This document shows positions 10,881 to 52,665 of a stretch of DNA of 64,000 nt, piece after piece. Below the pieces are notes generated by a model. That model was not told where the DNA came from and did no database searches. It saw only the letters and a list, made by a program, of their open reading frames with translations. The stretch lies in the NCBI GenBank assembly GCA_043799545.1, contig JAZDNO010000019.1, forward strand, positions 32,001-96,000. Reading direction: 5' to 3'. A program made the translations under genes and the position numbers. Each line of letters opens with the position of its first letter. The first letter of the stretch is position 1. Source of the DNA: Methanobacteriota archaeon (GTDB lineage Archaea; Thermoplasmatota; Thermoplasmata; SG8-5; DAIRED01).

Positions 10881-13800
10881 TTACGGTGGGGTGTTCATCC
10901 TACGCTTTCGGAACTGGATAGCCATCAGCACTGCTGCGCCTATCACTGTGATTGTTATTATCATTGCGGGAATCAGCCAGAGAGTAGAATTTGGACTAGC
11001 TTCGACATCCACTGTCAACGTATCTGTATCCCAATTGCCCGCTGCATCCGTCACGTTTAAGGTGACTATGTATTCACCGCTCGTCCAGAATGCCATCGAA
11101 GGGGCGGCGCCGAACAGCACTATGATCGTGCCGTTGTAGTGAACTGTCCATGTGTAATTGGCAATTTGAATATTATCTGCGGAGCCAGTTCCGTCGAGCG
11201 TGATTGTTTTTCCGACTCTCGTAGTAATATCATCTCCGGCCTGCGCTGTCGGAGGGATATCGTCCGGGACGTTGGTGGCGTTCACCAAGACAATGTCCCT
11301 TGCCTTGTTGCCCGCCCCATCCGAGACTGTCAAGGAGACGTTGTATATTCCGGGGTAAGTCAAGCTCATTTCGGGCATGGCTCCGTAGAGGGTGCCGTTT
11401 AATCCGCCGTGCGTGTAATTCCAAGTGTAATTGACGACCCCGATGTTGTCAGTTGATGCAGACCCGTTCAGGGTGAATGTTGCCAGAATGGGTGTTTTAA
11501 AGTCATCGCCGGCCTCAGCCGTGGGCGCGTCGTTGTCCCTGACATTCAGCGTTTCCTCTGTAAGGACTCTTTTATTTCCAGCCCCATCGACAGCCGAGAG
11601 CATGTATCTCAGCGGTTCAAGGCTTCCGGCTGGAATGCTCAAATCCAGGCTGTAATTGCCATCAGAAGACCCGACCATCGTTTTATTTGTCCAGTTGGCG
11701 CTCCCGAACCTATAGGCCACTCCAACAATGGGCGATGAGAGCGCATCGGACACCCGTGCCTCGAAACGGTACGCATCCCCTGTGGTCGCATCCGCGGAGC
11801 AGTTTGGCACCAATGACGGCGGCGTCGCATCGTAGCCGCAAGCGATTTTGTCGTTGGCGGGAGACGTCTCATTAAAGCCAGCGAGGTCAATCGCCTTCGT
11901 ATACAGTTCGTATTTTCCCTCTCCGCCAGGGAATGTGAAATTCCATTCAAACGGCTCGTTTTCGTCCTTGCCAAATAATGCCCAGCTCCCCCATGTGACA
12001 CCGTCACTGCCAGTGCGATACCATAGACTGACGTTTGCGATCCCCACGTCATCGCTGGCGGAGCAATTAAGGTTCAGATGGCTGTTTTTAATCCAATAAT
12101 TATCGGGGGCTCGCAGCTGACTCGCAGGTACCTGCGTGTCATACATCCAGGTGAGCTGCGCACAAGCCGGCTTCGGCTCTGTGTTGCCAGAGGCATCGAC
12201 CGCTACTGTGTAGAACTCGTAGAAACCGTGGCCGGAATTCGCTGGTTGAACTCCGGGAGCGAAGAACCAAGGCGAGGGAAATACGGAATAATCATAGAGC
12301 GTCCAAGCTGTCCAATTCTCCAAATCGCCGCTGAAGCGGTACCACAAATCCACCGTGACGACCCCACTATAGTCGTCGGTAGCCTTCGCTTCTATGATGC
12401 AATATCCCCAAGAGTTCTGGACTGTCTGGAAAATCGGTCTAGAAACCGGTGGATTGGCATCGCTGTACGTCCCGATTGGAGGTGCCATGAGCGGATAATG
12501 GTCTTTCGACTGGCCTCCGGGGATGTTGACCGGCGTGTCGCCGATGCCGTCCGCGCCGGTTGTATCCTGTAAAAGTCCTGAATTAAAATCGACGCCAGCG
12601 TAATCATCCCAGATGTTTCCGCCAGTCGGGTACGAGGTGTTCCAGGCATTGCCACATGTGTCCACTGCATGCTCGTCATTGCCGACGAATGAGTTGCGCC
12701 AGAACCTGTTCCCGCTCGAGTTATGGGTGGCGTTCACGCCTACGTAGTTGTCCAAGATGTGGAATCCGACGAAACTGTTCGCCGTTGAATTCCGTAGGAA
12801 TATAGCCGTGCTCTTTGCCCGCTCGATTGTTATCTCCAGATCGAATTGGCCAGGATTCTGGAACACAGTGTACCCAAGCACGCTGATAAAGTACGCTCCG
12901 TCAGGCGGATTGTGCAGCCTCAACCCCTCTTCGGCGTCGGAGTCTGCGCAGTAGCAGTAAATCCCCGTGCCATAAGATGATTCGTAAGCCTCGAACAAGC
13001 AAATGTCTCGCGTCACGATTTCCTCCCATTGGATTATCCCATCCGCCGGCTGCCCAGCAGCCCCGTCGAGGAATATCGCCAAGTCGAGGTCGGGGGCGTT
13101 CGAATGCCCGGAGATGCTCACATCGAATATGGTGGCGTTTGTGATTGAGACCGAGCGCCTGAACCCATCGCTGTCCGCGAACAAGGAAATCCAGTCCTCT
13201 ACCGTATTCTGCGGGCCTGATAGATCGCTTGCATTGACGTCGAGCCCATTTTCGGCTGTGTGTATCTCGCTTCCGAAAGCCCGCTCCGAACAGTTGGCCA
13301 CGGTGTTGTTTCCGAGATAGTTGTCATGGGAAGTGTCAAGGATGATTCCGAAATCGTTGTCCCAGAGTGCGTTGTCAAAAACGCGGTTGTAGCTCGAACC
13401 AGCAAATGCGATGCCCGTCGTTCCTGACGAGATGTTGCATGAGGTGACACTGACGAACATCGATTCCATTGATATTCCCACACCGTTTTCTCTCAAGGTG
13501 TTGCCTATGATTTCGCATCCCTGGGCGCGGGACCATGCCTGGATTCCTATGTCGTTGTACGAAATGTGGTTGCCTTGGAGCGAGTTCCCGAATGAGTTGT
13601 ACCCCCCACCGAGTTCCACGCCGACGGAACCATTCGATATTTTGCTAGATTGCAGAACGTTGTTCTTCGATTTTGAGTCGAATCTGACGCCAAGATGGTT
13701 GCCTGTCAGGTTGTTTACAGAGATGGTGCTGTTATCGCAATTCGACAGGGATATCGCGCAAGTGTCGTTCGACAGGTCGTTAAACCTTATGGTGCTGTTG

Positions 13801-14759
13801 CCGCAATACGCCATCGCGATGCCCATTGAAACGTTGGAGCACTTCAGCTTCTCGATGGTCATAGTGCTACAATTCACAAAGATGGCTTGTCCGCAGTCCG
13901 TGCTCTGTGTCACCCCAGCTTGGTTCTTGAGGTAGCAGACAGGTTTGCCGTGGACGAGGTTCGTCGTCGGGATTGTATGGCTGGCCCAATTCCAGACTTG
14001 GGAGCCGGTACTGGTGAATGCAATCCCCCGGCCGTCCATCGCGTTACCGAGCATCCTGACAGACGTGCACATGTCGAACTGGACATCGTCGCCGAAGCTT
14101 GATATATTGTTGCCGGTTACGTTCACCGATGACCCACCAGTGAGGTACAGCCCGACATCGTTGTCCTCAACCTCGTTGTCGGCTAGGCTCACGTTATTAC
14201 TATAGCTCAAATAAATCCCGTACGAATTATTGTGAATGGCGTTGTCTTGCACTGACGACGTGTCTGCATGGATGTTGACGCCTTTGCCGTTTCCGGCAAT
14301 GGTATTCTGTTCGACATCGATGTTTTGACCTTTCAAATATATCCCGATGGAGTTGTTGACAATCGCGTTGTCGGTTACTGACCCTCCAGAGGAGTCGAGG
14401 CTTATGGCGCCAGTGTCCTCGTTATAGGGGCCGCCGCTCACGTTCGACAGATGGCAATTTTTGATGACGAATGCGACCGTCGTGCCTGTGACCTTGATAC
14501 AATAATCGCCACCCGTCGCTGATATTTTCCATCCATCGATGACGAATGGATTCGACGCCCCCCCATTTCCGCCGGTAACTCCGTTCGCAGGAGTGAAACC
14601 CCCGTCAAACGTGATGAGGATCGGCGCATGGTTGGCGTAACGCGGAATGATGTGGCTTCCTGTCAAACCAGAACTCATCCAGGGGTTAGTGAAAGCGGTC
14701 AGCGCCGAGAGGATGATTGCCAACGCGAGTAATCCCGCGACCGTACCAGACTTCCACAC
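10881..14759 (-). CDS. Large cell-surface protein: NosD/CASH beta-helix repeats, PPC-like insert, Ig-like modules, two PKD domains, C-terminal TM anchor
   Basis: Signal peptide after the GTG start with a GAGGTG RBS, many N.I..N..GI.L repeats, two PTAEAG/PTAQAG...DGSASTDN-type PKD motifs, and a terminal hydrophobic helix followed by FRKRR. Confidence 0.85.
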   Translation of the reverse strand: MWKSGTVAGLLALAIILSALTAFTNPWMSSGLTGSHIIPRYANHAPILITFDGGFTPANGVTGGNGGASNPFVIDGWKISATGGDYCIKVTGTTVAFVIKNCHLSNVSGGPYNEDTGAISLDSSGGSVTDNAIVNNSIGIYLKGQNIDVEQNTIAGNGKGVNIHADTSSVQDNAIHNNSYGIYLSYSNNVSLADNEVEDNDVGLYLTGGSSVNVTGNNISSFGDDVQFDMCTSVRMLGNAMDGRGIAFTSTGSQVWNWASHTIPTTNLVHGKPVCYLKNQAGVTQSTDCGQAIFVNCSTMTIEKLKCSNVSMGIAMAYCGNSTIRFNDLSNDTCAISLSNCDNSTISVNNLTGNHLGVRFDSKSKNNVLQSSKISNGSVGVELGGGYNSFGNSLQGNHISYNDIGIQAWSRAQGCEIIGNTLRENGVGISMESMFVSVTSCNISSGTTGIAFAGSSYNRVFDNALWDNDFGIILDTSHDNYLGNNTVANCSERAFGSEIHTAENGLDVNASDLSGPQNTVEDWISLFADSDGFRRSVSITNATIFDVSISGHSNAPDLDLAIFLDGAAGQPADGIIQWEEIVTRDICLFEAYESSYGTGIYCYCADSDAEEGLRLHNPPDGAYFISVLGYTVFQNPGQFDLEITIERAKSTAIFLRNSTANSFVGFHILDNYVGVNATHNSSGNRFWRNSFVGNDEHAVDTCGNAWNTSYPTGGNIWDDYAGVDFNSGLLQDTTGADGIGDTPVNIPGGQSKDHYPLMAPPIGTYSDANPPVSRPIFQTVQNSWGYCIIEAKATDDYSGVVTVDLWYRFSGDLENWTAWTLYDYSVFPSPWFFAPGVQPANSGHGFYEFYTVAVDASGNTEPKPACAQLTWMYDTQVPASQLRAPDNYWIKNSHLNLNCSASDDVGIANVSLWYRTGSDGVTWGSWALFGKDENEPFEWNFTFPGGEGKYELYTKAIDLAGFNETSPANDKIACGYDATPPSLVPNCSADATTGDAYRFEARVSDALSSPIVGVAYRFGSANWTNKTMVGSSDGNYSLDLSIPAGSLEPLRYMLSAVDGAGNKRVLTEETLNVRDNDAPTAEAGDDFKTPILATFTLNGSASTDNIGVVNYTWNYTHGGLNGTLYGAMPEMSLTYPGIYNVSLTVSDGAGNKARDIVLVNATNVPDDIPPTAQAGDDITTRVGKTITLDGTGSADNIQIANYTWTVHYNGTIIVLFGAAPSMAFWTSGEYIVTLNVTDAAGNWDTDTLTVDVEASPNSTLWLIPAMIITITVIGAAVLMAIQFRKRRMNTPP

Positions 14760-14930
14760 ATCCGCACCTCGGGGAAGCATCGGATTGCCGAGTATTAAGG
14801 CTATTGGTAATTCATTTTGTAGAAAAGGAAATTGAAAAGGGTTTTTCTCTCTCATCAGAGCCGCAGAATGATACGCCCCTGGCGATAAATTCTGCAAGCG
14901 GAATGGGTGATGTGCGGTGGGAGTATGGAT

Positions 14931-16598
14931 TTAATCCATGTCTCCCATCCCACCGCCACCCATACCGCCCATGCCACCCGGCGGCATTCCGCCGCCTGGG
15001 GCTCCGCCAGCGCCGCGCTTCGCGGCTATGACGTCGTCTATGCGCAGTATCATGTTCGCGACCTCGGTCGCGCTGCATATCGCCTGCGTCTTGACGCGGA
15101 TCGGCTCGATGACGTTCATCTTTACCATGTCCTTCGTCACGCCGTTGAAGATGTCGATTCCCACGTTCGACCTCTTCCCCTTGCCCTCGTGCTCGGACCT
15201 GAGGTTGATGAGCATGTTTATCGCGTCCAGGCCTGCGTTCTCCGCGAGGGTCCACGGGATGATTTCCATGGCCTTGGAGAATGCCTCGATTGCCAGCTGC
15301 TCGCGCCCGCCGACAGTCGTCGCGTAGTCCTGGAGCCTGAGCGAGAGCTCGACTTCCGTCGCGCCTCCGCCTGGCACTACAATTCCGTCCTCTATTGCGA
15401 CAGCGGTCACCTTCAAGGCGTCGTGCAGCGCGCGCTCGAGCTCGTCGACGACGTGCTCCGTGCCGCCCCTGAGCAGTATAGATACGCTCTTGGGGTTCTT
15501 GCACTCGGTCACGAACGTCATGTCCGTGTCCCCGACCTTGCGCTCCTCGACGAGCCCGGCCCGACCGAGGTCGTTGGCGCTCAGGTCGTCCAGCTTGCTC
15601 ACGAGGTTCGCTCCGGTCGCGCGGGCGAGCTTCTCCATGTCGCTCTTCTTGACCCTGCGCACTGTGTAGATGCCCTCCTTCGCGAGGTAGTGCTGCACGA
15701 GGTCGTCCACGCCCTTCTGGCAGAACACGACGTTGGCGCCGGACTTCTTGATGATGTCCGACTTGGCCTTCAGCGTGCGCTCCTCCTCCGCGAGGAACTT
15801 CTCCATCTGGGACGGGTCGTTTATCTGAATCTTGGCGTCGACCTCGGTCTTCTTGATTTCAAGCGCAGCGTCAAGCAGCGCAATCTTGGCGTTCTTGACT
15901 GCCTTTGGCATCCTCGGGTGCACGCGCTCCTTGTCCACTATGATTCCCTGGACCAGCTCGGTGTCCGTGACGCTCGCTCCGTGCTTCTTCTCGACCTTCA
16001 CGTTGTCCACGTCGACGGTCCAGCCATCGCTGGACTTGTCCGCGACCGCCCGTATTGCCTTAACGCAGAGGTTTGCAAGCATCTCCCTGTTCGGGCCGGC
16101 TCCGCCCTTCGAAGACATGGCGGTCATGGCGACCTTCCTCAGCATGACCTCGTCGGTGGGGCTGATCTTGATTCCCATGGTCTTGAGAATTCTGTTGGCC
16201 TCGGTCGCAGCCAGCGAATAGCCGGACGCGATTATCGTCGGGTGGACGTTCTGCTCGATGAGGAATTCCGCCTTCTTCAGCAGTTCCCCAGCGATGACCA
16301 CGGCGCTCGTAGTCCCGTCGCCGCACTCGTTGTCCTGGGTCTTCGCCACCTCGACGACCATCTTGGCCGCCGGGTGCTCTATGTCGATCTCCTTCAGTAT
16401 GGTCGCGCCGTCGTTCGTTATGACGACGTCGCCCATGCTGTCGACCAGCATCTTGTCCATTCCCCTCGGTCCTAGGGTCGAGCGCACCGCATCGGCGACC
16501 GCTTTCGCGGCGTTGATGTTGTTAAACTGGGCGCCCTTGCCCTTGTTCCTCTCCGTGCCCTCTCTCAGCACGATTATCGGTTGCTGTCCTGACATCAT
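14931..16598 (-). CDS. ths: Thermosome (group II chaperonin) subunit
   Basis: [26 protein letters not shown] and a GGM-rich C-terminal tail. Confidence 0.98.
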
Positions 16599-17271: not shown

Positions 17272-17904
17272 TCAATCCTTCGGTAAGTCCGTGGCGCAGA
17301 CCCGGCACGTGTCAACGCCCTTCCTGTTCGGCATCTGGCATTGGGGGCACAGGACCATTCCTTCTGGGACGCGCACCGGTTCCGGGGATTGTGGCTCGGG
17401 TACCAAAGGATGGGTGATCTCTTGGTGTGCGTGGGTCTGATACCTCTTGGCCACGGCGTCGTGGATGTTCGGTTTTTCGTAATCATACGAATCGAACTTC
17501 GCCCGCGTTCTGGAATTCCTCAGGTAATACCAGAAATAAAGGTAGAGCGCAGCCGATATCAGAAGAAACGGATTGATAAGGCATAGCAGGAGCGCGAGGA
17601 TTGCCAGCAATCCGTAGAATTCCACGCCCCACCGCCTGGCCCACTCGGCCATCATCGTCAATCCGATGGCCATGATTATGACGAGGGCGCCTAGAGCCAA
17701 GAGCATCACGCCGACCAGCCTGAACATCGAGCCGAAGTCCATGCCGCTGTAGGAGTAGCTAGAAATGAGGTTGCCCAGGCCGAAGAAGGTTGCGCCGAAG
17801 TAGAGGTAAACTGCGCCCATAACTATCGAGATAATGCTGATGGCCAGTATTCCTCGCGGAATCTTCTTTCTCTTCGACCTCATCACAACTGTAATCCGTT
17901 CCAA
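17272..17904 (-). CDS. Hypothetical 4-TM membrane protein with C-terminal zinc ribbon
   Basis: Four hydrophobic helices followed by CPQC...CRVC. Confidence 0.75.
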   Translation of the reverse strand: MERITVVMRSKRKKIPRGILAISIISIVMGAVYLYFGATFFGLGNLISSYSYSGMDFGSMFRLVGVMLLALGALVIIMAIGLTMMAEWARRWGVEFYGLLAILALLLCLINPFLLISAALYLYFWYYLRNSRTRAKFDSYDYEKPNIHDAVAKRYQTHAHQEITHPLVPEPQSPEPVRVPEGMVLCPQCQMPNRKGVDTCRVCATDLPKD

Positions 17905-17931: not shown

Positions 17932-20900
17932 TCATGCTTGCGTGCGCGAGGAATCCGTTGGCTGGTCAAGATGCGGATTCTCTTCGAGCACCGCCTTTTC
18001 AAGGCTGCCAGCCCCGGCTGCCTTTGCGAATTCCAGCACCTCGCCTGACATTTTATTAGCGGTCGATGGGTCTCCGGATTTCGCGCAAAAAAGCGCAAAA
18101 GTCCTCTTGGCCCTGGCGAGGGGAAAGCCTTCGTTCAGCCTGGCATGGATTTCTATGGATTTTTCAAAGTGCCCGCGCGCCGAAGAGGCGTCCCCCTTCG
18201 CCGCCTCCAGCAGCCCGGCAACCCTGTGGTAAACAGCCAGGAGGTTGTCCGCCTTCATCGAGTCCGCGTCGGCCTTCGCCCCGGCTAGCAGGCCCGCCGC
18301 CTCGTCCAGGCGCCCCTCGCCCGTGCACACCTCCGCGAGGGAGACGCGACAGAGCGACTGCATCAGGCGGTCCCCGACCTCCGCGCCGAGCGCCATGCCG
18401 CGCTCAAGGAACCCCCGCGCCTCCGCCGGCCTCCCGGCCTGCAGGTGCAAATCCCCGAGGTTCGCGCAGGCCGTCCCGGCACTGGGCAGGTCGCCTATCC
18501 TCTCAGCAAGCTCCCTGCTCCCTGAAATGTAATTCTCGGCCTTCTCGAATTCCATCATGTCCTGCCACATCAGCCCTATCCCTATCATGTTCGAGCATTG
18601 GCCGGTCAGGTCGCCGATGCGCTTCCTGATGCCGAGCGCCTCCTCCATGTAGCGCAACGCGCCCCTCGGGTCCCCCTGGTTCTTGCTGATGATTCCCAAG
18701 TTTCCGGCGGTGCTGGCGATGCCCCTCAGGTCGGAGATGCTGCGCTTGACCGATAGCGCCTCGCGGTAGTAGCCCGCGGCCTTCTCCCAAGCCCCCCTGC
18801 TGTGGTGGATGGCTCCGATGTTGTTGAGGCTGGCCCCCAGGCCGGCTAGGTCGGCCAGCGCCCGCCTCCCAGCCGCGGCCTTCTCCAGGTGGGGCAGCGC
18901 CTCGTCGAACCTCCGGGTCTGGAGGAAGAGGGTGCCGAGCACGTGCTCCGCGGAAGCCAGCGCGGCTTCGTCGCCAGAGCCCCCGGCAATCTCCATCTGG
19001 CGGCGGGCCCAGCTCTCGGCCTCCCTGACCTCCCCGCGCTTCAGGTGGGCGTAGTACATGACGTGGCATGTCCTCGTCAGCTCCGCGGACGGGCCGAGCG
19101 GTTCGAGGATTGCGAAAGCCTCGCCGCCCAGCCTGAGGCTCGATGGCCAGTCGGATTTCATGTCATGCGCCTCGGCCATAAGCGTGAGCACCTTCCCGCG
19201 GTCCTGTCCAGCAGCCTCAGGTAGCAACCCCTCGTATATCGTCAAGGCCGAATCGTAGAGTCCCATGTAACGCTCGCAGTCCCCGAGCTCCATCATCGCG
19301 TCCCGTCCGATGTCCCCAGACTCCTTGGCGAGCCTGTAGAGCTTGGCCGCCTCCTCGATTGCGAAGCGCCTTTTCGCGTCCCGCGCGGCGGCGACGAGAT
19401 GGGCTGGCGCCCGCGGGTCGCCGGCGTTGTGGAGATGCAGGGCGATTTCCGAGAGTTTCCCGGGCGCGGATGTTCTCAACATGGACTCGGCAGCCATCCT
19501 GTGCAGCTCGCGCCGCATCCCCGCCCCCATGCGCCCGTACGCAGCCTCCCGGACCTTGGAATGGTCGAACCTGTAGCCAGCCGCCCCGCTACGGACGAGC
19601 CCCGTCCCGCACTCGATGAAATCCAGCCTCCCGAGGAGGTCCATCCTCGCGGCCCCGGTCAGGTCTCCCAGGGCTTCCAGCGCGAACTCCTCCCCGAGCA
19701 CCGCCGCGGCGGAAAGGAGCCTGGCGTCTTCCGGAGGCATCCTGTCGAACCTCCGGTTGACGATGTCCGCCACCCGCTCCGGCATCTCCAGCTCGTCGAC
19801 AGCCTTCGCGAGCCTCCACCTGCCGCCTTCATCCAAAGACAGGACCCCGCTCTCCCTCAGCAGCCTCAGGAGTTCGAGTGTGTAGAAAGGGTTCCCTCCG
19901 CCCTCCCTCTGGAGCCTGGAATAGAACGCCTCCTCCAGAGTGGAGCCTTCCAGCGCTGACTCCACCAAATCGCGCGAGCGCTCCGTCTCTAGCCGCTCGA
20001 GACCGATGATGGAAACGACCCCTTCGCGGGACATGGTCTTCATGGCGCTAGCCAGCGGATGCTGCTTTCCGTCGGCGGGCGCGACGTCCTCCGGCCTGAA
20101 AGTGCCGAGAATCAACATGCGCGTCCCCCTGGCGCTCCTGGCTAGGTAGTGTACGAGCGACACGGTCGTCGGGTCGGCCCACTGGAGGTCGTCGAGGTAG
20201 AGCACGATGGGTTTTTCCGCCGCCTTGCGCGAGAGCCCCGCGAGGATGTTGGAGAGGAGCCCGTTCTTCCTCAGGCCAGGGTCGTCGACCAGATGTCTTC
20301 CTTCGTACCTTCCGCTGCGAACGAGTGATTCCAGCGCGGACTTCGCCATATCCGTCTCGGCCACGTTTCCGCTCCAACCGGACAGTCCGGGCCCGAGCTC
20401 CGAGAGAAGCTCGTCCATCTCGGCGAGCAGCGGCTCGTTCTCGCGCCCCATCGTGATGGACGCCAGCGAGAGCCCGCTACGGCTCCTCAGGGTTATCCTG
20501 AAATTCCCGTAGGATATGGAGCCGAGGTTGGCCTGGCCCGCCCCCAGCGGCGAGAGCGAGTCCTTCGCGAAGTTGGAGATGGCCTGGAGCATGCCCGAGA
20601 ATATGTCCGCGTCCACGCCACCTTTACCGGAGGCGCCGTCGGAGCCCCCGCCGGGCTTCGCCGCGCTGGCAACCAGAACTCCCCCCTGGTCTATCAGGTA
20701 CAGGCAGAGCAGCTCGGGCGGCGGGTCGTCGTCCAGCACGTATGCGATTCCGAGCCCGGCCAGCGCCTCCCGGACCGGGTGGAGCGGTTCGAGGGTGCTC
20801 TCGACGCACCAGCCCCTGGCCACCGAGGCGCCTTTCTCCTCCGCCGTTGCGAGCGCCTCCTCGCAAAGCCTGCTCTTGCCGATGCCAGCCTCGCCCGAAA

Positions 20901-21012
20901 CCAGGACTGCCGAGCCGTCTCCTGCGAGCGCCCGTTCAAGGCGAGACCTCAGCTCTGCCAGCTCACTGGACCTCCCCACAAGCGCGGGCTTGAACGAACG
21001 CTCTGCCTGCAT
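17932..21012 (-). CDS. STAND/AAA_16-type NTPase with longin-like insert and C-terminal TPR array
   Basis: LVGRSSEL, Walker A GEAGIGKS, Walker B LYLDDLQWAD, GGNPFY and repeated ASLNNIG/AGNLG TPR helices. Confidence 0.85.
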   Translation of the reverse strand: MQAERSFKPALVGRSSELAELRSRLERALAGDGSAVLVSGEAGIGKSRLCEEALATAEEKGASVARGWCVESTLEPLHPVREALAGLGIAYVLDDDPPPELLCLYLIDQGGVLVASAAKPGGGSDGASGKGGVDADIFSGMLQAISNFAKDSLSPLGAGQANLGSISYGNFRITLRSRSGLSLASITMGRENEPLLAEMDELLSELGPGLSGWSGNVAETDMAKSALESLVRSGRYEGRHLVDDPGLRKNGLLSNILAGLSRKAAEKPIVLYLDDLQWADPTTVSLVHYLARSARGTRMLILGTFRPEDVAPADGKQHPLASAMKTMSREGVVSIIGLERLETERSRDLVESALEGSTLEEAFYSRLQREGGGNPFYTLELLRLLRESGVLSLDEGGRWRLAKAVDELEMPERVADIVNRRFDRMPPEDARLLSAAAVLGEEFALEALGDLTGAARMDLLGRLDFIECGTGLVRSGAAGYRFDHSKVREAAYGRMGAGMRRELHRMAAESMLRTSAPGKLSEIALHLHNAGDPRAPAHLVAAARDAKRRFAIEEAAKLYRLAKESGDIGRDAMMELGDCERYMGLYDSALTIYEGLLPEAAGQDRGKVLTLMAEAHDMKSDWPSSLRLGGEAFAILEPLGPSAELTRTCHVMYYAHLKRGEVREAESWARRQMEIAGGSGDEAALASAEHVLGTLFLQTRRFDEALPHLEKAAAGRRALADLAGLGASLNNIGAIHHSRGAWEKAAGYYREALSVKRSISDLRGIASTAGNLGIISKNQGDPRGALRYMEEALGIRKRIGDLTGQCSNMIGIGLMWQDMMEFEKAENYISGSRELAERIGDLPSAGTACANLGDLHLQAGRPAEARGFLERGMALGAEVGDRLMQSLCRVSLAEVCTGEGRLDEAAGLLAGAKADADSMKADNLLAVYHRVAGLLEAAKGDASSARGHFEKSIEIHARLNEGFPLARAKRTFALFCAKSGDPSTANKMSGEVLEFAKAAGAGSLEKAVLEENPHLDQPTDSSRTQA

Positions 21013-21056
21013 CCGGCACTCCCGTCGCCCAATCGCTCCGTGAAATAATATCCTTT

Positions 21057-21824
21057 TCATCTCCGGGCGCGAGTCTTCCTCGGCTCGACCATGTTGTCCT
21101 TCCACTTTCCGAGCCTGGTGCCGTCCATGAGGTAGATATCAGCGCTCGATGTATCCAGTATCCCGCCTTTGAACAGCGGGCCGAGGATGTCCCGCCCCCG
21201 CTCGTTCACGGGCGTCCCGCCGCAATAAGGGTGCAGGGCCGGTAGAAGCACGAATCCTTTTGGCATATCCTCATACCTGTCGTTTTTCCCGGCCTTGCCC
21301 CTCAGCCAGCATTTCTCTGTCGCTCGGCGGCCTATCCCGTCGACGAAGAGCGCAGTCGGGTGGGCGTGCGCGACGAACAGAGTCTTGGATGCGAACACGG
21401 TTTCCGATGGCCAGGAATGCCCGTGGCAGAAACCGAAGTCCCCGATGGTGAAACCTGAAGCGGGATGGATTTTAGCCCACTCTGGCGCCAGGTAGTCCAA
21501 GCCGCCGTCGTGGTTCCCCCTCGCCAAGTCCACGCGCTCGAACTGCATCTCCAGAGTGCGAAAGAAGCGCGGCACTTCGTAGCGCTCCTGGTCCGACATC
21601 CTCGGAAGGTTGTGTTTCGCGTCCCCGGCGATGACGAGCTTCGTCGCGCCGACCGCCTCCCCCATGGAAACGAGCAGGCTGGCCATCGCCATAGTCTGCG
21701 ACGGCACCTGCACCCCGCGTGACGATATCTCGTGCTCGATGCCTATGTGAAGGTCCGCGGCGACAAGGTATTTCCCGCCGTCGTGTTCGAACGTAAGCGC
21801 GGGGCGGCCGTGAATGGGCTCCAT
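21057..21824 (-). CDS. ICC-like metallophosphoesterase
   Basis: ADLHIG, AGDAKH, GNHDG, CHGH and AHAHP. Confidence 0.85.
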   Translation of the reverse strand: MEPIHGRPALTFEHDGGKYLVAADLHIGIEHEISSRGVQVPSQTMAMASLLVSMGEAVGATKLVIAGDAKHNLPRMSDQERYEVPRFFRTLEMQFERVDLARGNHDGGLDYLAPEWAKIHPASGFTIGDFGFCHGHSWPSETVFASKTLFVAHAHPTALFVDGIGRRATEKCWLRGKAGKNDRYEDMPKGFVLLPALHPYCGGTPVNERGRDILGPLFKGGILDTSSADIYLMDGTRLGKWKDNMVEPRKTRARR

Positions 21825-49620: not shown

Positions 49621-52533
49621 TCAACCTTCGCGACCCAGACCTTCTAGCATCTTCTCGCACCGTTCGGCGTCCTTCCGGATGTTGGACTTCCTGAACGCCT
49701 GCAGCGCCAGCATAAGGTGCTCACGCGCAGATTCCCGTCTTCCCTCCTTCGCCAGGAGTTCGGCATACTGCGTGCGCACGATTGCCCCGTCGATGACGAA
49801 ACCCGCCCCCTCCAGCCTATTGATGGATGATTCGTATTTGACGAAACAGCCATCTTTGTCGCCAGTTCCGAGAAGGACATCCCCCTCCAGCTTATCCACC
49901 ATGCCGATGAACTTCTTCAGGTCGAGTTCCTCCGCGACCCTCTTCGCGCGCTCAATGTTCACACTTGCGTCTTCCAGCCTTCCCGTGGCCAGGTTCAGCT
50001 CCGCCAGGCCGCAGTTCGCGCTGGCCTCGCCGGGCCTGTCTCCGTCCGCCGACGCGATCTCGAGTGCGTGCGTGTAGGCATCTAAGGCGCCCTCCGCATC
50101 GCCGAGATTCGTCTTGCATTTGGCTATATTTGTGTACAGGCGCGCTGACTCGACTCCCAACCTTTCCGAGAGTTCTAACGCCCGCGAGAAATGCGCCATC
50201 GCGTTGTCGAAATCGGCTGTGTCCTGCAGGAGTGCGCCGATGTTGGTGTTGGCGAAGAGCGCGCCCATCAGGTCTCCAATCCCCTCGCGGATGGCGAGCG
50301 CCCTCTTGTAGTAGTCGAGCGCAGCGCCGTAATCACCGAGGTCTGCGTGAGCGTTCCCGATGTTGTTCAGGGAAGCCGCGATGACATCCTTGTTGCCGGA
50401 TTTCTCTCGGGCCAACAACGCCTTCGAGTAATTCTCCAATGCCCGGGAGTTCTCTCCCCTGTCCGCGAGCACGTTGCCTATGAGGTTGAACGCGAACCCA
50501 GTCTCCTCGTAGGCGTTTCCCTGCTTCTCAAGAAGGGAAAGGCAGTCGTTGGCGCACGTCAATGCCGTGTCGAACTCACCAAGGCGCCAGTGAACAACCC
50601 CCTTTCCGACGGTCAGCTTGCTGAGCTCCGGGGAATCGGTAGCTTCGACTAGTTTGATTCCGGTTTCGAAGGATTCAATCGCGGCCTTCGGGTTCCCCGC
50701 CTTTTCTAGGGTATACCCGATTTTCCTGTGCAACCTGGCAGACCCTTCGGGCTCTTGGTTGGCCGACCTAGCAGACTCGTACTTCCCCACAGCTTCGACG
50801 AATCTGCTCACGAGCCTGAGCATGTCGCCGGTCCTCTCGCGTATTGCCGGAAGCCTCTCAGCATCGAGCAGGTTGCCGCTTTTGGCCGATGAGATGAGCG
50901 ATTCGACGAATTCGAAATATTCAATCGCCGACGCCGGTGCGTAGACCAAGGCGGATTTCTCCCCGGCCAAGAGGTTGTAGTTCAGAGCCTTGCCGTGCTC
51001 GCGGCTCCTTCTAAAATGGTACGCTAGTTCGTGGAGGCGCGCTTCTTGCAGTCCGAGCCCTTCGATTGTCTCCCCTATTCGCCTGTGCCTGGCCGCCCTC
51101 CATCGCTCCCCCGTTTCGCCGTATATTATCTCCCTAACCTTCGGCATGGAGAACCTGTATGCTCCGTCGTCCCGTATGACGAGATGTCTCCCTTCGAGGC
51201 GCTCCAAGGCGCTCTCGAACGATTTTCCTGGCAGGTCCTTTTCCGAGACCGCGCGCGATAGAATGTCGAAGTCAATATCCCCTGGCATCGCCGCCATCAG
51301 TTCTATAACTTCGAGTTCGAGGTCGTGGAGGGAGTCGATTTTGGAGTGCAGAAGCGCGGACATCTGCGCCCCCACGCCGCTGGAGATTTGATAGTCCAAC
51401 TCCGCAACATCCCCCACGCCCTTCGACACGATCAGGTCGGCGTATTCGCGAAGCAGCGCAGGGTTTCCGCCCGTCCTCTTGACGATTTCGAGCACGAGCT
51501 CTTCACGGAGCCCGTCCCCGCATGTTGAGCGGACGAATGCTGCGGCAGAAGGCTCGTTTAAATCTGCGAGGTGGATGATTTCGCCGTGCTTGTCAGCCAG
51601 AGTCATCAGGGCAGAGATGTGCTCAACCCCCTCCATCGGCTGCAGGGCTGCGATTACGAGCAGCTTCCTCTTTTTGTTGGTCCTCACAAGATGTTCCAGG
51701 AGTTGAAGCGAATTGCCGTCTATGGAGTGTGCGTCGTCGATGAAGAGCAAGGTTGGGGATTCCGATGCCAGCCTGTCGAACAGTAGCGAGTTCCTCTCGC
51801 CTATCCTGACCATCTGCTTCTTTATGTCGACATCGTCTCTCCTGGTTTCGAGGATGTACATCTTCTCCAGGAGTCCTTTCGCGAGGGCGGCGATGGGTGC
51901 AGCGGCCCTCATGTCCCCAGACCAGTTCCGCACGGTGTCGCCGTGCGCTGATTCCATCTCGGAGACGCACCTCCCGAGGTCCCTCCTCATCTGGGGGCTA
52001 TCGGTTCCGGACAGGACTCCCACGCAGAAGCAGTCACTCCCGTGCTCGATGAGTATCTTGCTGGTCCTATACTCCAGTTTGCCCAGGCCGCCCTCCTCGA
52101 TGCCGCCGTCCCCGATGGCCGCCCTGCCCAGGGAATCCCCCACAAAATTCTGCACTGCGGATATCATGCCGCCGACGATGTCCTCGTCCATCGGAGTGTC
52201 GACCCTGGCAGCGTGCGCCAGCACGAGCCCCGCTTTGTTGATGATGAAAATCCTCTCGAACGAGGCCTTCTCTTCCCAAGGCAGTTCGACTATTCCCACG
52301 TTCCTGAAAGACTGGACGAAGACGCCGTATGGCGGAGCCCCTTCGTAGCAATTGGCGGACAAGGTCTTCCAGTTGCCCGGCGGCAGCGCTTTCGCAAACT
52401 CCGACGCCAGGGTGCTCTTCCCTGTCCCCTCGTCGCCGGCGATCAAGATGAATCTTCCCGAACCAGAGAGCACTTCGCCGAGCCTCGCATTGAGCCTGCC
52501 GAGTTCGTCCACTCTTTCCAACCGAGGAACCAT
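49621..52533 (-). CDS. Second STAND/AAA_16-type NTPase with longin-like insert and TPR array
   Basis: Walker A GDEGTGKS, Walker B LLFIDDAH, GGNPALL and ASLNNIGN TPRs. Confidence 0.85.
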   Translation of the reverse strand: MVPRLERVDELGRLNARLGEVLSGSGRFILIAGDEGTGKSTLASEFAKALPPGNWKTLSANCYEGAPPYGVFVQSFRNVGIVELPWEEKASFERIFIINKAGLVLAHAARVDTPMDEDIVGGMISAVQNFVGDSLGRAAIGDGGIEEGGLGKLEYRTSKILIEHGSDCFCVGVLSGTDSPQMRRDLGRCVSEMESAHGDTVRNWSGDMRAAAPIAALAKGLLEKMYILETRRDDVDIKKQMVRIGERNSLLFDRLASESPTLLFIDDAHSIDGNSLQLLEHLVRTNKKRKLLVIAALQPMEGVEHISALMTLADKHGEIIHLADLNEPSAAAFVRSTCGDGLREELVLEIVKRTGGNPALLREYADLIVSKGVGDVAELDYQISSGVGAQMSALLHSKIDSLHDLELEVIELMAAMPGDIDFDILSRAVSEKDLPGKSFESALERLEGRHLVIRDDGAYRFSMPKVREIIYGETGERWRAARHRRIGETIEGLGLQEARLHELAYHFRRSREHGKALNYNLLAGEKSALVYAPASAIEYFEFVESLISSAKSGNLLDAERLPAIRERTGDMLRLVSRFVEAVGKYESARSANQEPEGSARLHRKIGYTLEKAGNPKAAIESFETGIKLVEATDSPELSKLTVGKGVVHWRLGEFDTALTCANDCLSLLEKQGNAYEETGFAFNLIGNVLADRGENSRALENYSKALLAREKSGNKDVIAASLNNIGNAHADLGDYGAALDYYKRALAIREGIGDLMGALFANTNIGALLQDTADFDNAMAHFSRALELSERLGVESARLYTNIAKCKTNLGDAEGALDAYTHALEIASADGDRPGEASANCGLAELNLATGRLEDASVNIERAKRVAEELDLKKFIGMVDKLEGDVLLGTGDKDGCFVKYESSINRLEGAGFVIDGAIVRTQYAELLAKEGRRESAREHLMLALQAFRKSNIRKDAERCEKMLEGLGREG

Positions 52534-52665
52534 TTTCCTTTCCCGCCCACAATGCGGAGCGGTATCAGCACCCGCACCCGCATTGGTAATGCGCCTTCGG
52601 ATATATCGCTTTGTTCATCCCTTCGCGTCGAATGCAGATTTCGATGGGCTGGCACGACCTGCCAG

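Follow-up and report, generated by a model that had tools for sequence, protein, structure and literature searches.

A Roadblock/longin-like module inserted in the P-loop core of a STAND ATPase from Thermoplasmatota, and its co-occurrence with Ras-like GTPases

We analysed a stretch of 64,000 nucleotides from the genome of an archaeon of the Thermoplasmatota (assembly GCA_043799545.1, contig JAZDNO010000019.1, positions 32,001 to 96,000; hereafter the window), and in it a minus-strand gene for a STAND-type ATPase (signal transduction ATPase with numerous domains) that carries an additional domain inside its nucleotide-binding core. The open reading frame at 17932-21105 is single and uninterrupted. 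Translation is likely to start at residue M32 of this frame (position 21012), yielding a product of 1026 amino acids; we favour this start because an identical protein of 1026 amino acids is present in the database and the N-termini of homologs agree with it. The gene has the following parts.

17932-21012, minus strand: whole gene, 1026 amino acids from M32; STAND (AAA_16) ATPase with an inserted Roadblock/longin-like module and an array of tetratricopeptide repeats (TPRs).
20728-20982, minus strand: N-terminal half of the P-loop core, with strand 1, Walker A, helix 1, strand 2 and short conserved EPLxP helices (Pfam AAA_16 stretch 42-128; strands 34-39 and 63-68 and helices 46-59 and 78-93 in the AlphaFold2 model).
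20290-20727 with linkers, core 20320-20712, minus strand: putative inserted Roadblock/longin-like module (alignment, AlphaFold2 model, hhalign, predicted dimer and Pfam scans of relatives).
19846-20289, minus strand: C-terminal half of the NTPase core, with helix 2, Walker B, the sensor-1 region and the GGGNPFY motif (motifs, model and invariant columns).
17986-19308, minus strand: MalT-like TPR array, presumed to be a sensor or protein-binding arm (Pfam TPR_12 4e-34, TPR_MalT 6e-12).

The Pfam AAA_16 model matches the protein in two separate stretches with 91.1 bits (cut-off 32.6). The Walker A motif GEAGIGKS occupies residues 71-78 of the reading frame (20872-20895) and the Walker B motif IVLYLDDLQWAD residues 300-311 (20173-20208), with the sensor-1 region LILGTFRPED at 20086-20115 and the conserved GGGNPFY motif at 19882-19902. 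The G/K, D, Q, W, R, E, G and P columns of these motifs are invariant across 30 aligned homologs. The Pfam score, the two Walker motifs, the sensor arginine, the GxP motif and the modelled fold of the nucleotide-binding oligomerisation domain (NOD), which resembles solved STAND and ORC/Cdc6 structures, all agree with membership in the MalT-type STAND/AAA_16 family. The NOD begins about 10 residues past the start codon, and scans with Pfam, NCBIfam and PADLOC found no terminal effector, be it a helix-turn-helix (HTH), cyclase, kinase or other domain, in the protein: NCBIfam returned just partial TOMM kinase/cyclase and TPR matches far under the cut-off, and the PADLOC defence models a generic TPR match. 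Within the tripartite effector-NOD-sensor architecture of STAND proteins the sensor is thus present as the TPR array, while a terminal effector is without a match in Pfam and NCBIfam. A preliminary description, made from the sequence without database searches, had noted TPRs after the NTPase and the lack of an N-terminal effector, HTH or cyclase domain, and the family scans agree with it on both counts.

Walker A and Walker B are separated by 229 residues in this protein and by 215-228 in about 30 insert-bearing homologs, as compared to 100-165 in ordinary AAA_16 proteins. The extra segment of about 130 amino acids that the preliminary description had placed between the two motifs (20320-20715) coincides with the core of the module, which is about 125-135 amino acids long and amounts to about 130-145 inserted amino acids with its linkers. 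Aligned across 30 homologs with 28-78% identity, the insert is conserved to the same degree as the ATPase motifs and has a signature of its own: a proline-rich lead-in, a Y..N..G strand, a D.DIF..ML.A..NF..DS helix, a G..SE turn and a W.G motif. In an AlphaFold2 model built with this alignment (pLDDT 84, pTM 0.78) the insert comes after strand 2 and before the helix just ahead of the Walker B strand. Its elements, assigned by DSSP, are strands 100-107 and 113-118, helix 135-156, strands 165-168, 171-178 and 181-188, and helices 193-210 and 217-231, so that the order reads strand-strand-helix-strand-strand-strand-helix-helix; the strands have pLDDT values of 82-88. The Gly/Ser-rich loop after strand 2 is disordered and specific to this protein and its closest relatives. 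A model of residues 32-420 from the single sequence was unusable (pLDDT 43). Shape searches with the whole ATPase-plus-insert model (Foldseek against the PDB, VIA-align wide and ESM-Atlas) were uninformative on the fold of the insert, since all matches were ATPase cores (RuvBL, ORC/Cdc6, MalT, AAA_16).

For a comparison at the profile level we aligned 210 sequences of the module and, separately, 27 archaeal Robl_LC7 genes found with PF03259 in the source genome and related genomes. The two profiles match with an hhalign probability of 90.9 (P 1.1e-6), in register from strand 1 through strand 5, as compared to at most 2.9 for twenty column shuffles and 1.8 for the reversed alignment. Among relatives of the insert Robl_LC7 is the most frequent weak, sub-threshold Pfam match (4 of 30 and 9 of 72), followed by Fuz_longin_1 (3 of 72). 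The remaining families occur at most once or twice in the scan of 72 members, and DUF934 matched four members in the scan of 30. No Pfam search of the insert or its relatives gave similarity to PAS or GAF domains. In protein-language-model space the insert lies near archaeal hypothetical proteins of short length and near an Asgard 'Roadblock/LAMTOR2' cluster, which we take as a lead only; Methanobacteriota also appear among the clusters close to it. The source genome also has three canonical Robl_LC7 genes, and the module profile does not retrieve them; by sequence the insert falls outside the Pfam family Robl_LC7.

The modelled order of the core, strand-strand-helix-strand-strand-strand, is that of the Roadblock/LC7-longin superfamily. 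A longin corresponds to a Roadblock domain minus the N-terminal helix and plus an extra C-terminal helix (PMC10933270). The N-terminal helix of Roadblock in the strict sense is absent here, the module starting at strand 1 (profile positions 6-130 in other proteins), and the two helices after strand 5 both belong to the mobile module, so that in the model the arrangement is of the longin type. Profile and model together support placing the insert in the Roadblock/LC7-longin superfamily, as a distant member that stays below threshold and has longin-type order.

A pair of inserts was predicted to dimerise with an ipSAE of 0.60 in three runs, while the best of three controls reached 0.02; in a benchmark this mark was attained by 20 of 30 proteins solved as pairs and by 1 of 23 solved as single chains. 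The partner had a pLDDT of at least 79, and at least 82% of the contacts were common between runs. The predicted interface is formed by the central helix (insert residues 37-63) and an antiparallel pairing of strand 3 with strand 3 (insert residues 66-78), and the conserved surface of the insert coincides with the dimer helix. In the prediction this is the canonical geometry of Roadblock/longin dimers, and because it is the canonical one the predicted dimer may come from the model's memory of solved dimers. The idea of a longin/roadblock-like insert, first proposed from the sequence, has thus gained profile homology, a longin-type order of elements, recurrent weak Robl_LC7 and Fuz_longin_1 matches and a predicted canonical dimer.

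A search with the insert profile returned 4448 cluster representatives at E<=1e-3 and 1891 at E<=1e-10. The best matches are mostly proteins of about 1000 amino acids with the same ATPase-insert-TPR arrangement. Further hosts are proteins of 1300-2400 amino acids with two or three copies of the module together with CARDB and DUF5915, proteins of about 570 amino acids with tandem pairs, and short proteins. Three metagenomic relatives of 1600-2400 amino acids (P0124, P0145 and P0230) have CARDB, two or three modules about 500 residues apart and a C-terminal DUF5915.

Of the 17 module proteins in the source genome (2.06 Mb, 94% complete), nine are paralogs with the ATPase-insert-TPR arrangement. 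One of these, also in the window, is about 23% identical to the first gene:

49621-52614, minus strand: second paralog, AAA_16 with insert and TPRs; module at 51865-52260, Walker A GDEGTGKS.

The other eight comprise two large surface proteins in which a C-terminal module is combined with a signal peptide, DUF11/Ig-like domains and a transmembrane helix, a protein with eight transmembrane helices and a C-terminal module, a protein combining DUF835, the module and TPRs, and small proteins, one of them with a possible zinc ribbon. In the single-pass and multi-pass membrane proteins the module is the cytoplasmic tail. The DUF835 protein (contig C18:133501-135330) is a second architecture that links the Roadblock/longin-like module to a TPR array. 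Across the nine paralogs the insert has a mean identity of 33%, the ATPase core of 32% and the TPR arm of 24%, and the near equality of the first two values suggests that the insert is under constraint like the enzyme core. In the genome collection, full-length insert-bearing matches came only from metagenome-assembled genomes of Thermoplasmata/Thermoplasmatota, and the bacterial AAA_16 relatives in the same collection are without the insert. As judged from these searches the module is mobile, specific to certain lineages and without a Pfam model. A midpoint-rooted tree of modules separates a main ATPase clade from the receptor-type modules with a support of 0.998. We do not claim a single ancestral insertion, because four ATPase paralogs of the source genome and a few others group with the receptor modules.

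The module family is linked to Ras-like GTPases in two ways. Among 201 sampled Thermoplasmatota genomes, in which Ras-like GTPases were called at E<=1e-15, 35 have the module and 37 a Ras-like GTPase: 34 have both, one the module alone, three the GTPase alone and 163 neither, counts that overstate the significance because related genomes are not independent, with a pattern that persists at the family level. Genomes with and without the module both include small and large ones. Adjacency was scored over the open frame span of the module gene plus 1.5 kb, and a Ras-like gene was found near 22 of 150 module genes among the matches listed, as compared to 2.6 expected by chance from a deliberately generous interval (∼8-fold). 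Six of these loci were fetched, and five hold a bona fide gene with Walker A, module, AAA_16 and TPRs directly beside a Ras-family gene. Two of the five pairs are on the same strand, with frames that overlap or lie 4 bp apart (genomes G080 and G074), one is convergent and two are divergent (G156, G010 and G032), and together they span four taxonomic families. The source genome has ten Ras/Rab-like GTPases and an MglA-like gene beside a canonical Robl_LC7 gene, and two of its receptor-type module genes directly adjoin GTPase genes (contigs C28:18568-25033 and C10:198322-202422), one with two same-strand GTPase genes upstream and the other with a single convergent one. For the module family, these gene surveys of Thermoplasmatota lend real comparative support to the proposed coupling with small GTPases. 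The preliminary description had suggested surveying genomes for the insertion and for neighbouring small GTPases; the outcome is positive for the module family in Thermoplasmatota (both present in 34 of 201 genomes, 22 of 150 genes adjacent) and negative for the present gene.

Several further features of the GTPases were observed. In one relative the GTPase divergent to the ATPase-insert gene is a TPR-Ras fusion of 343 amino acids (locus L149:437-1465, minus strand). Ras-like GTPases of the source genome occur in adjacent pairs of a long and a short gene (C2:114602-115993, C30:72325-73722 and C28:18568-19885), and five of the ten have a conserved, apparently helical C-terminal extension of about 100 amino acids; the extensions of the long GTPases match neither the module nor the Robl_LC7 profile. 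On contig C18 (63444-65077) a canonical Robl_LC7 gene lies immediately 3' of a frame of 420 amino acids that ends in an MglA/Arf-like GTPase of 150 residues and whose N-terminal ∼260 residues are without a family assignment.

Around the ATPase gene itself lie a metallophosphatase-like gene, a GNAT gene, a methyltransferase gene, a gene for a membrane/zinc-ribbon protein and a thermosome gene. Those downstream of the ATPase gene are listed here.

17272-17904, minus strand: small multi-pass membrane protein with a zinc-ribbon-like C-terminal tail (CxxC...CxxC), no Pfam family; absent here in the locus of the closest relative (L001).
14931-16598, minus strand: thermosome (Cpn60_TCP1) subunit, syntenic in a close relative.
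10881-14897, minus strand: NosD/beta-helix and PKD surface protein, 1338 amino acids.

A conserved partner gene beside the ATPase gene was considered and rejected, as synteny does not extend beyond close relatives and the membrane/zinc-ribbon gene downstream lacks conservation.

Several known systems resemble parts of this architecture. The MalT/AAA_16 STAND ATPases with TPR arms (MalT, PDB 8bob; an archaeal STAND-TPR protein, PDB 6mfv) differ in that the present protein has an α/β domain of about 130 amino acids between strand 2 and helix 2 and, by Pfam and NCBIfam scans, no DNA-binding or enzymatic effector domain at either end. With the Roadblock/LC7 proteins (MglB, LAMTOR2/3, dynein LC7, Asgard RB; PMC10933270, PMC4316618) the module shares the order of the core, homology at the profile level, the predicted mode of dimerisation by central helix and strand 3, and the genomic linkage to Ras-like GTPases; unlike them it stays under every Pfam threshold, lacks the N-terminal helix and has two C-terminal helices, and whereas they are free proteins of about 120 amino acids it is embedded in another enzyme or tethered to membrane receptors. 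The order of elements is also that of the longins (SNARE longins, TRAPP Bet5/Trs23, MON1/FUZ, Asgard longins), a comparison made by element order, and 3 of 72 relatives match Fuz_longin_1 weakly; in contrast to longins the module has no significant sequence match, is prokaryotic and non-Asgard, and is inserted in an ATPase. In the Rag GTPases and the Asgard GTPase-Roadblock/longin fusions a Roadblock/longin domain is likewise joined covalently to a nucleotide switch, but as a terminal fusion to a small GTPase rather than an internal insertion in a STAND ATPase core. RuvBL1/RuvBL2 (Rvb1/2), the top Foldseek matches of the whole model, also have a complete domain (domain II) inserted after Walker A and ahead of Walker B in an AAA+-like core; theirs is an OB-fold in hexameric AAA+ proteins, and as the TM-score is just 0.32-0.38 we regard the likeness as an analogy of topology and not as kinship. 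General links of the Roadblock/longin superfamily with NTPases are well known (PMC4316618, PMC10933270), and an association of profilin-longin-like domains with GTPases and ParA proteins is mentioned in a general way in a 2026 preprint. Our searches of the open-access literature found no account of a STAND ATPase with an internal Roadblock/longin domain, in agreement with the preliminary description, which had not recognised the architecture.

Taken together, these observations favour, with moderate confidence, a MalT/AAA_16 STAND ATPase whose Roadblock/LC7-longin insert acts as a dimeric platform for Ras-like GTPases and so ties an ATP switch to a GTP switch. The insert would take the place of the absent output or adaptor domain of the ATPase. 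The central helix and third strand of the insert would mediate dimerisation in the Roadblock/longin manner, the partner being the insert of another ATPase protomer or the module of a receptor tail, and the module dimer would serve as the platform for a Ras-like GTPase; we infer this contact of the insert with a GTPase. The platform would then assemble or come apart in step with ligand binding by the TPR arm and with oligomerisation of the STAND core driven by ATP, and the two switches would be linked in this way. The strand 2-helix 2 site at which the module is inserted is where AAA+ initiators carry an extra helix facing neighbouring subunits, which makes nucleotide-dependent pairing or unpairing of inserts plausible.

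A number of points weigh against this interpretation. The central helix of the insert has only moderate confidence in the AlphaFold2 model (pLDDT 56-65), and the ATPase core of the full-length protein might hide the dimer surface. Pfam on the insert by itself gave zero models at threshold and no Robl_LC7 match even at E<=10, and searches of PDB sequences with two module profiles gave no match beyond helical or de novo proteins without significance. Our assignment of the fold is based on the profile comparison, the order of secondary-structure elements and the predicted dimer. There is no GTPase among the gene's own neighbours, and 128 of the 150 module genes among the matches listed are likewise without one; the synteny with the thermosome, GNAT and metallophosphatase genes is kept in close relatives only, distant homologs having other neighbours. 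The phyletic co-occurrence could also mirror a shared signalling-rich lifestyle.

The last points bear on an alternative in which the insert is purely a homotypic adaptor. It would pair with receptor-tail modules or with those of other protomers, as death-fold and effector-associated adaptors do in other STAND proteins, and would never contact a GTPase, the GTPases being parallel components of the same lifestyle. The presence of the same module on many different proteins of one genome, the predicted insert dimer and the lack of a GTPase neighbour for this gene and for most module genes all fit such an adaptor, but the near-perfect co-occurrence of the module with Ras-like GTPases does not, nor does the eight-fold excess of adjacency, which includes operon-like pairs of ATPase-insert and Ras genes. 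The known partners of the superfamily are moreover small GTPases (PMC10933270, PMC4316618), and we consider a role as adaptor only unlikely. In another alternative the insert is an autoinhibitory lid or a small-molecule sensor, a profilin-like α/β domain that would either bind a ligand or keep the oligomerisation face of the NTPase covered for as long as nothing engages the TPR arm. Such a role would suit the strand 2-helix 2 position, which in AAA+ initiators faces neighbouring subunits, the ligand binders known among profilin-like folds and the equal conservation of insert and core. It is hard to reconcile with a conserved surface that falls on the predicted dimer helix and with the occurrence of the module as a free C-terminal tail without an ATPase, and PAS or GAF similarity appeared in no search; we judge it to be improbable.

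Nine divergent paralogs with fast-evolving TPR arms could also reflect an arms race, and STAND-TPR proteins are often immune sensors, so that the protein might be an antiviral (Avs-like) sensor with the insert as its effector or adaptor. Yet PADLOC yielded only the generic TPR match, Pfam and NCBIfam found no nuclease, protease or other killing domain, and the neighbours are housekeeping genes without the context of a defence island, which leaves an antiviral function very unlikely. The preliminary description had itself named the ordinary helical subdomain of AAA_16 proteins as the outcome that would speak against its proposal. Walker A-Walker B spacing does vary in AAA_16, from 100 to 165 amino acids, but the insert contains five strands, is found as a module of its own in otherwise unrelated proteins, matches the Robl_LC7 profile and has no counterpart in ordinary AAA_16 models. 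On these grounds we exclude an ordinary variable segment, to which we assign a next to negligible probability.

The reading of the insert as a dimeric GTPase platform can be extended, as a tentative and rather doubtful proposal, to a two-switch network in Thermoplasmatota. Surface receptors with longin-like cytoplasmic tails and module-bearing STAND ATPases would form module dimers on which Rab/Ras-like GTPases dock, with the GTP state gating ATP-driven STAND oligomerisation or the reverse. If it exists, such a network would be a prokaryotic, non-Asgard counterpart of platforms of the Ragulator/TRAPP type, and it would add a new mode of control of STAND/NLR-like switches, exerted from within the nucleotide-binding domain.

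STAND/NLR-type ATPases are normally regulated via terminal sensor and effector domains, and a partner-binding domain within the P-loop core would be a different regulatory design for them. Roadblock/longin platforms and Ras-like GTPases are mainly discussed as features of Asgard archaea and eukaryotes. The module described here appears to be a large unannotated branch of the superfamily in another archaeal phylum, tightly co-distributed with Ras-like GTPases and carried on membrane receptors and ATP switches, and this co-distribution points to an undescribed ATPase-GTPase signalling network in Thermoplasmatota. Thousands of proteins now annotated as no more than 'TPR repeat protein' or 'AAA family ATPase' would, as these results suggest, contain a domain that has no model yet and for which a family should be defined, and the module provides a concrete, testable system for the study of how GTPase platforms worked before eukaryotes.

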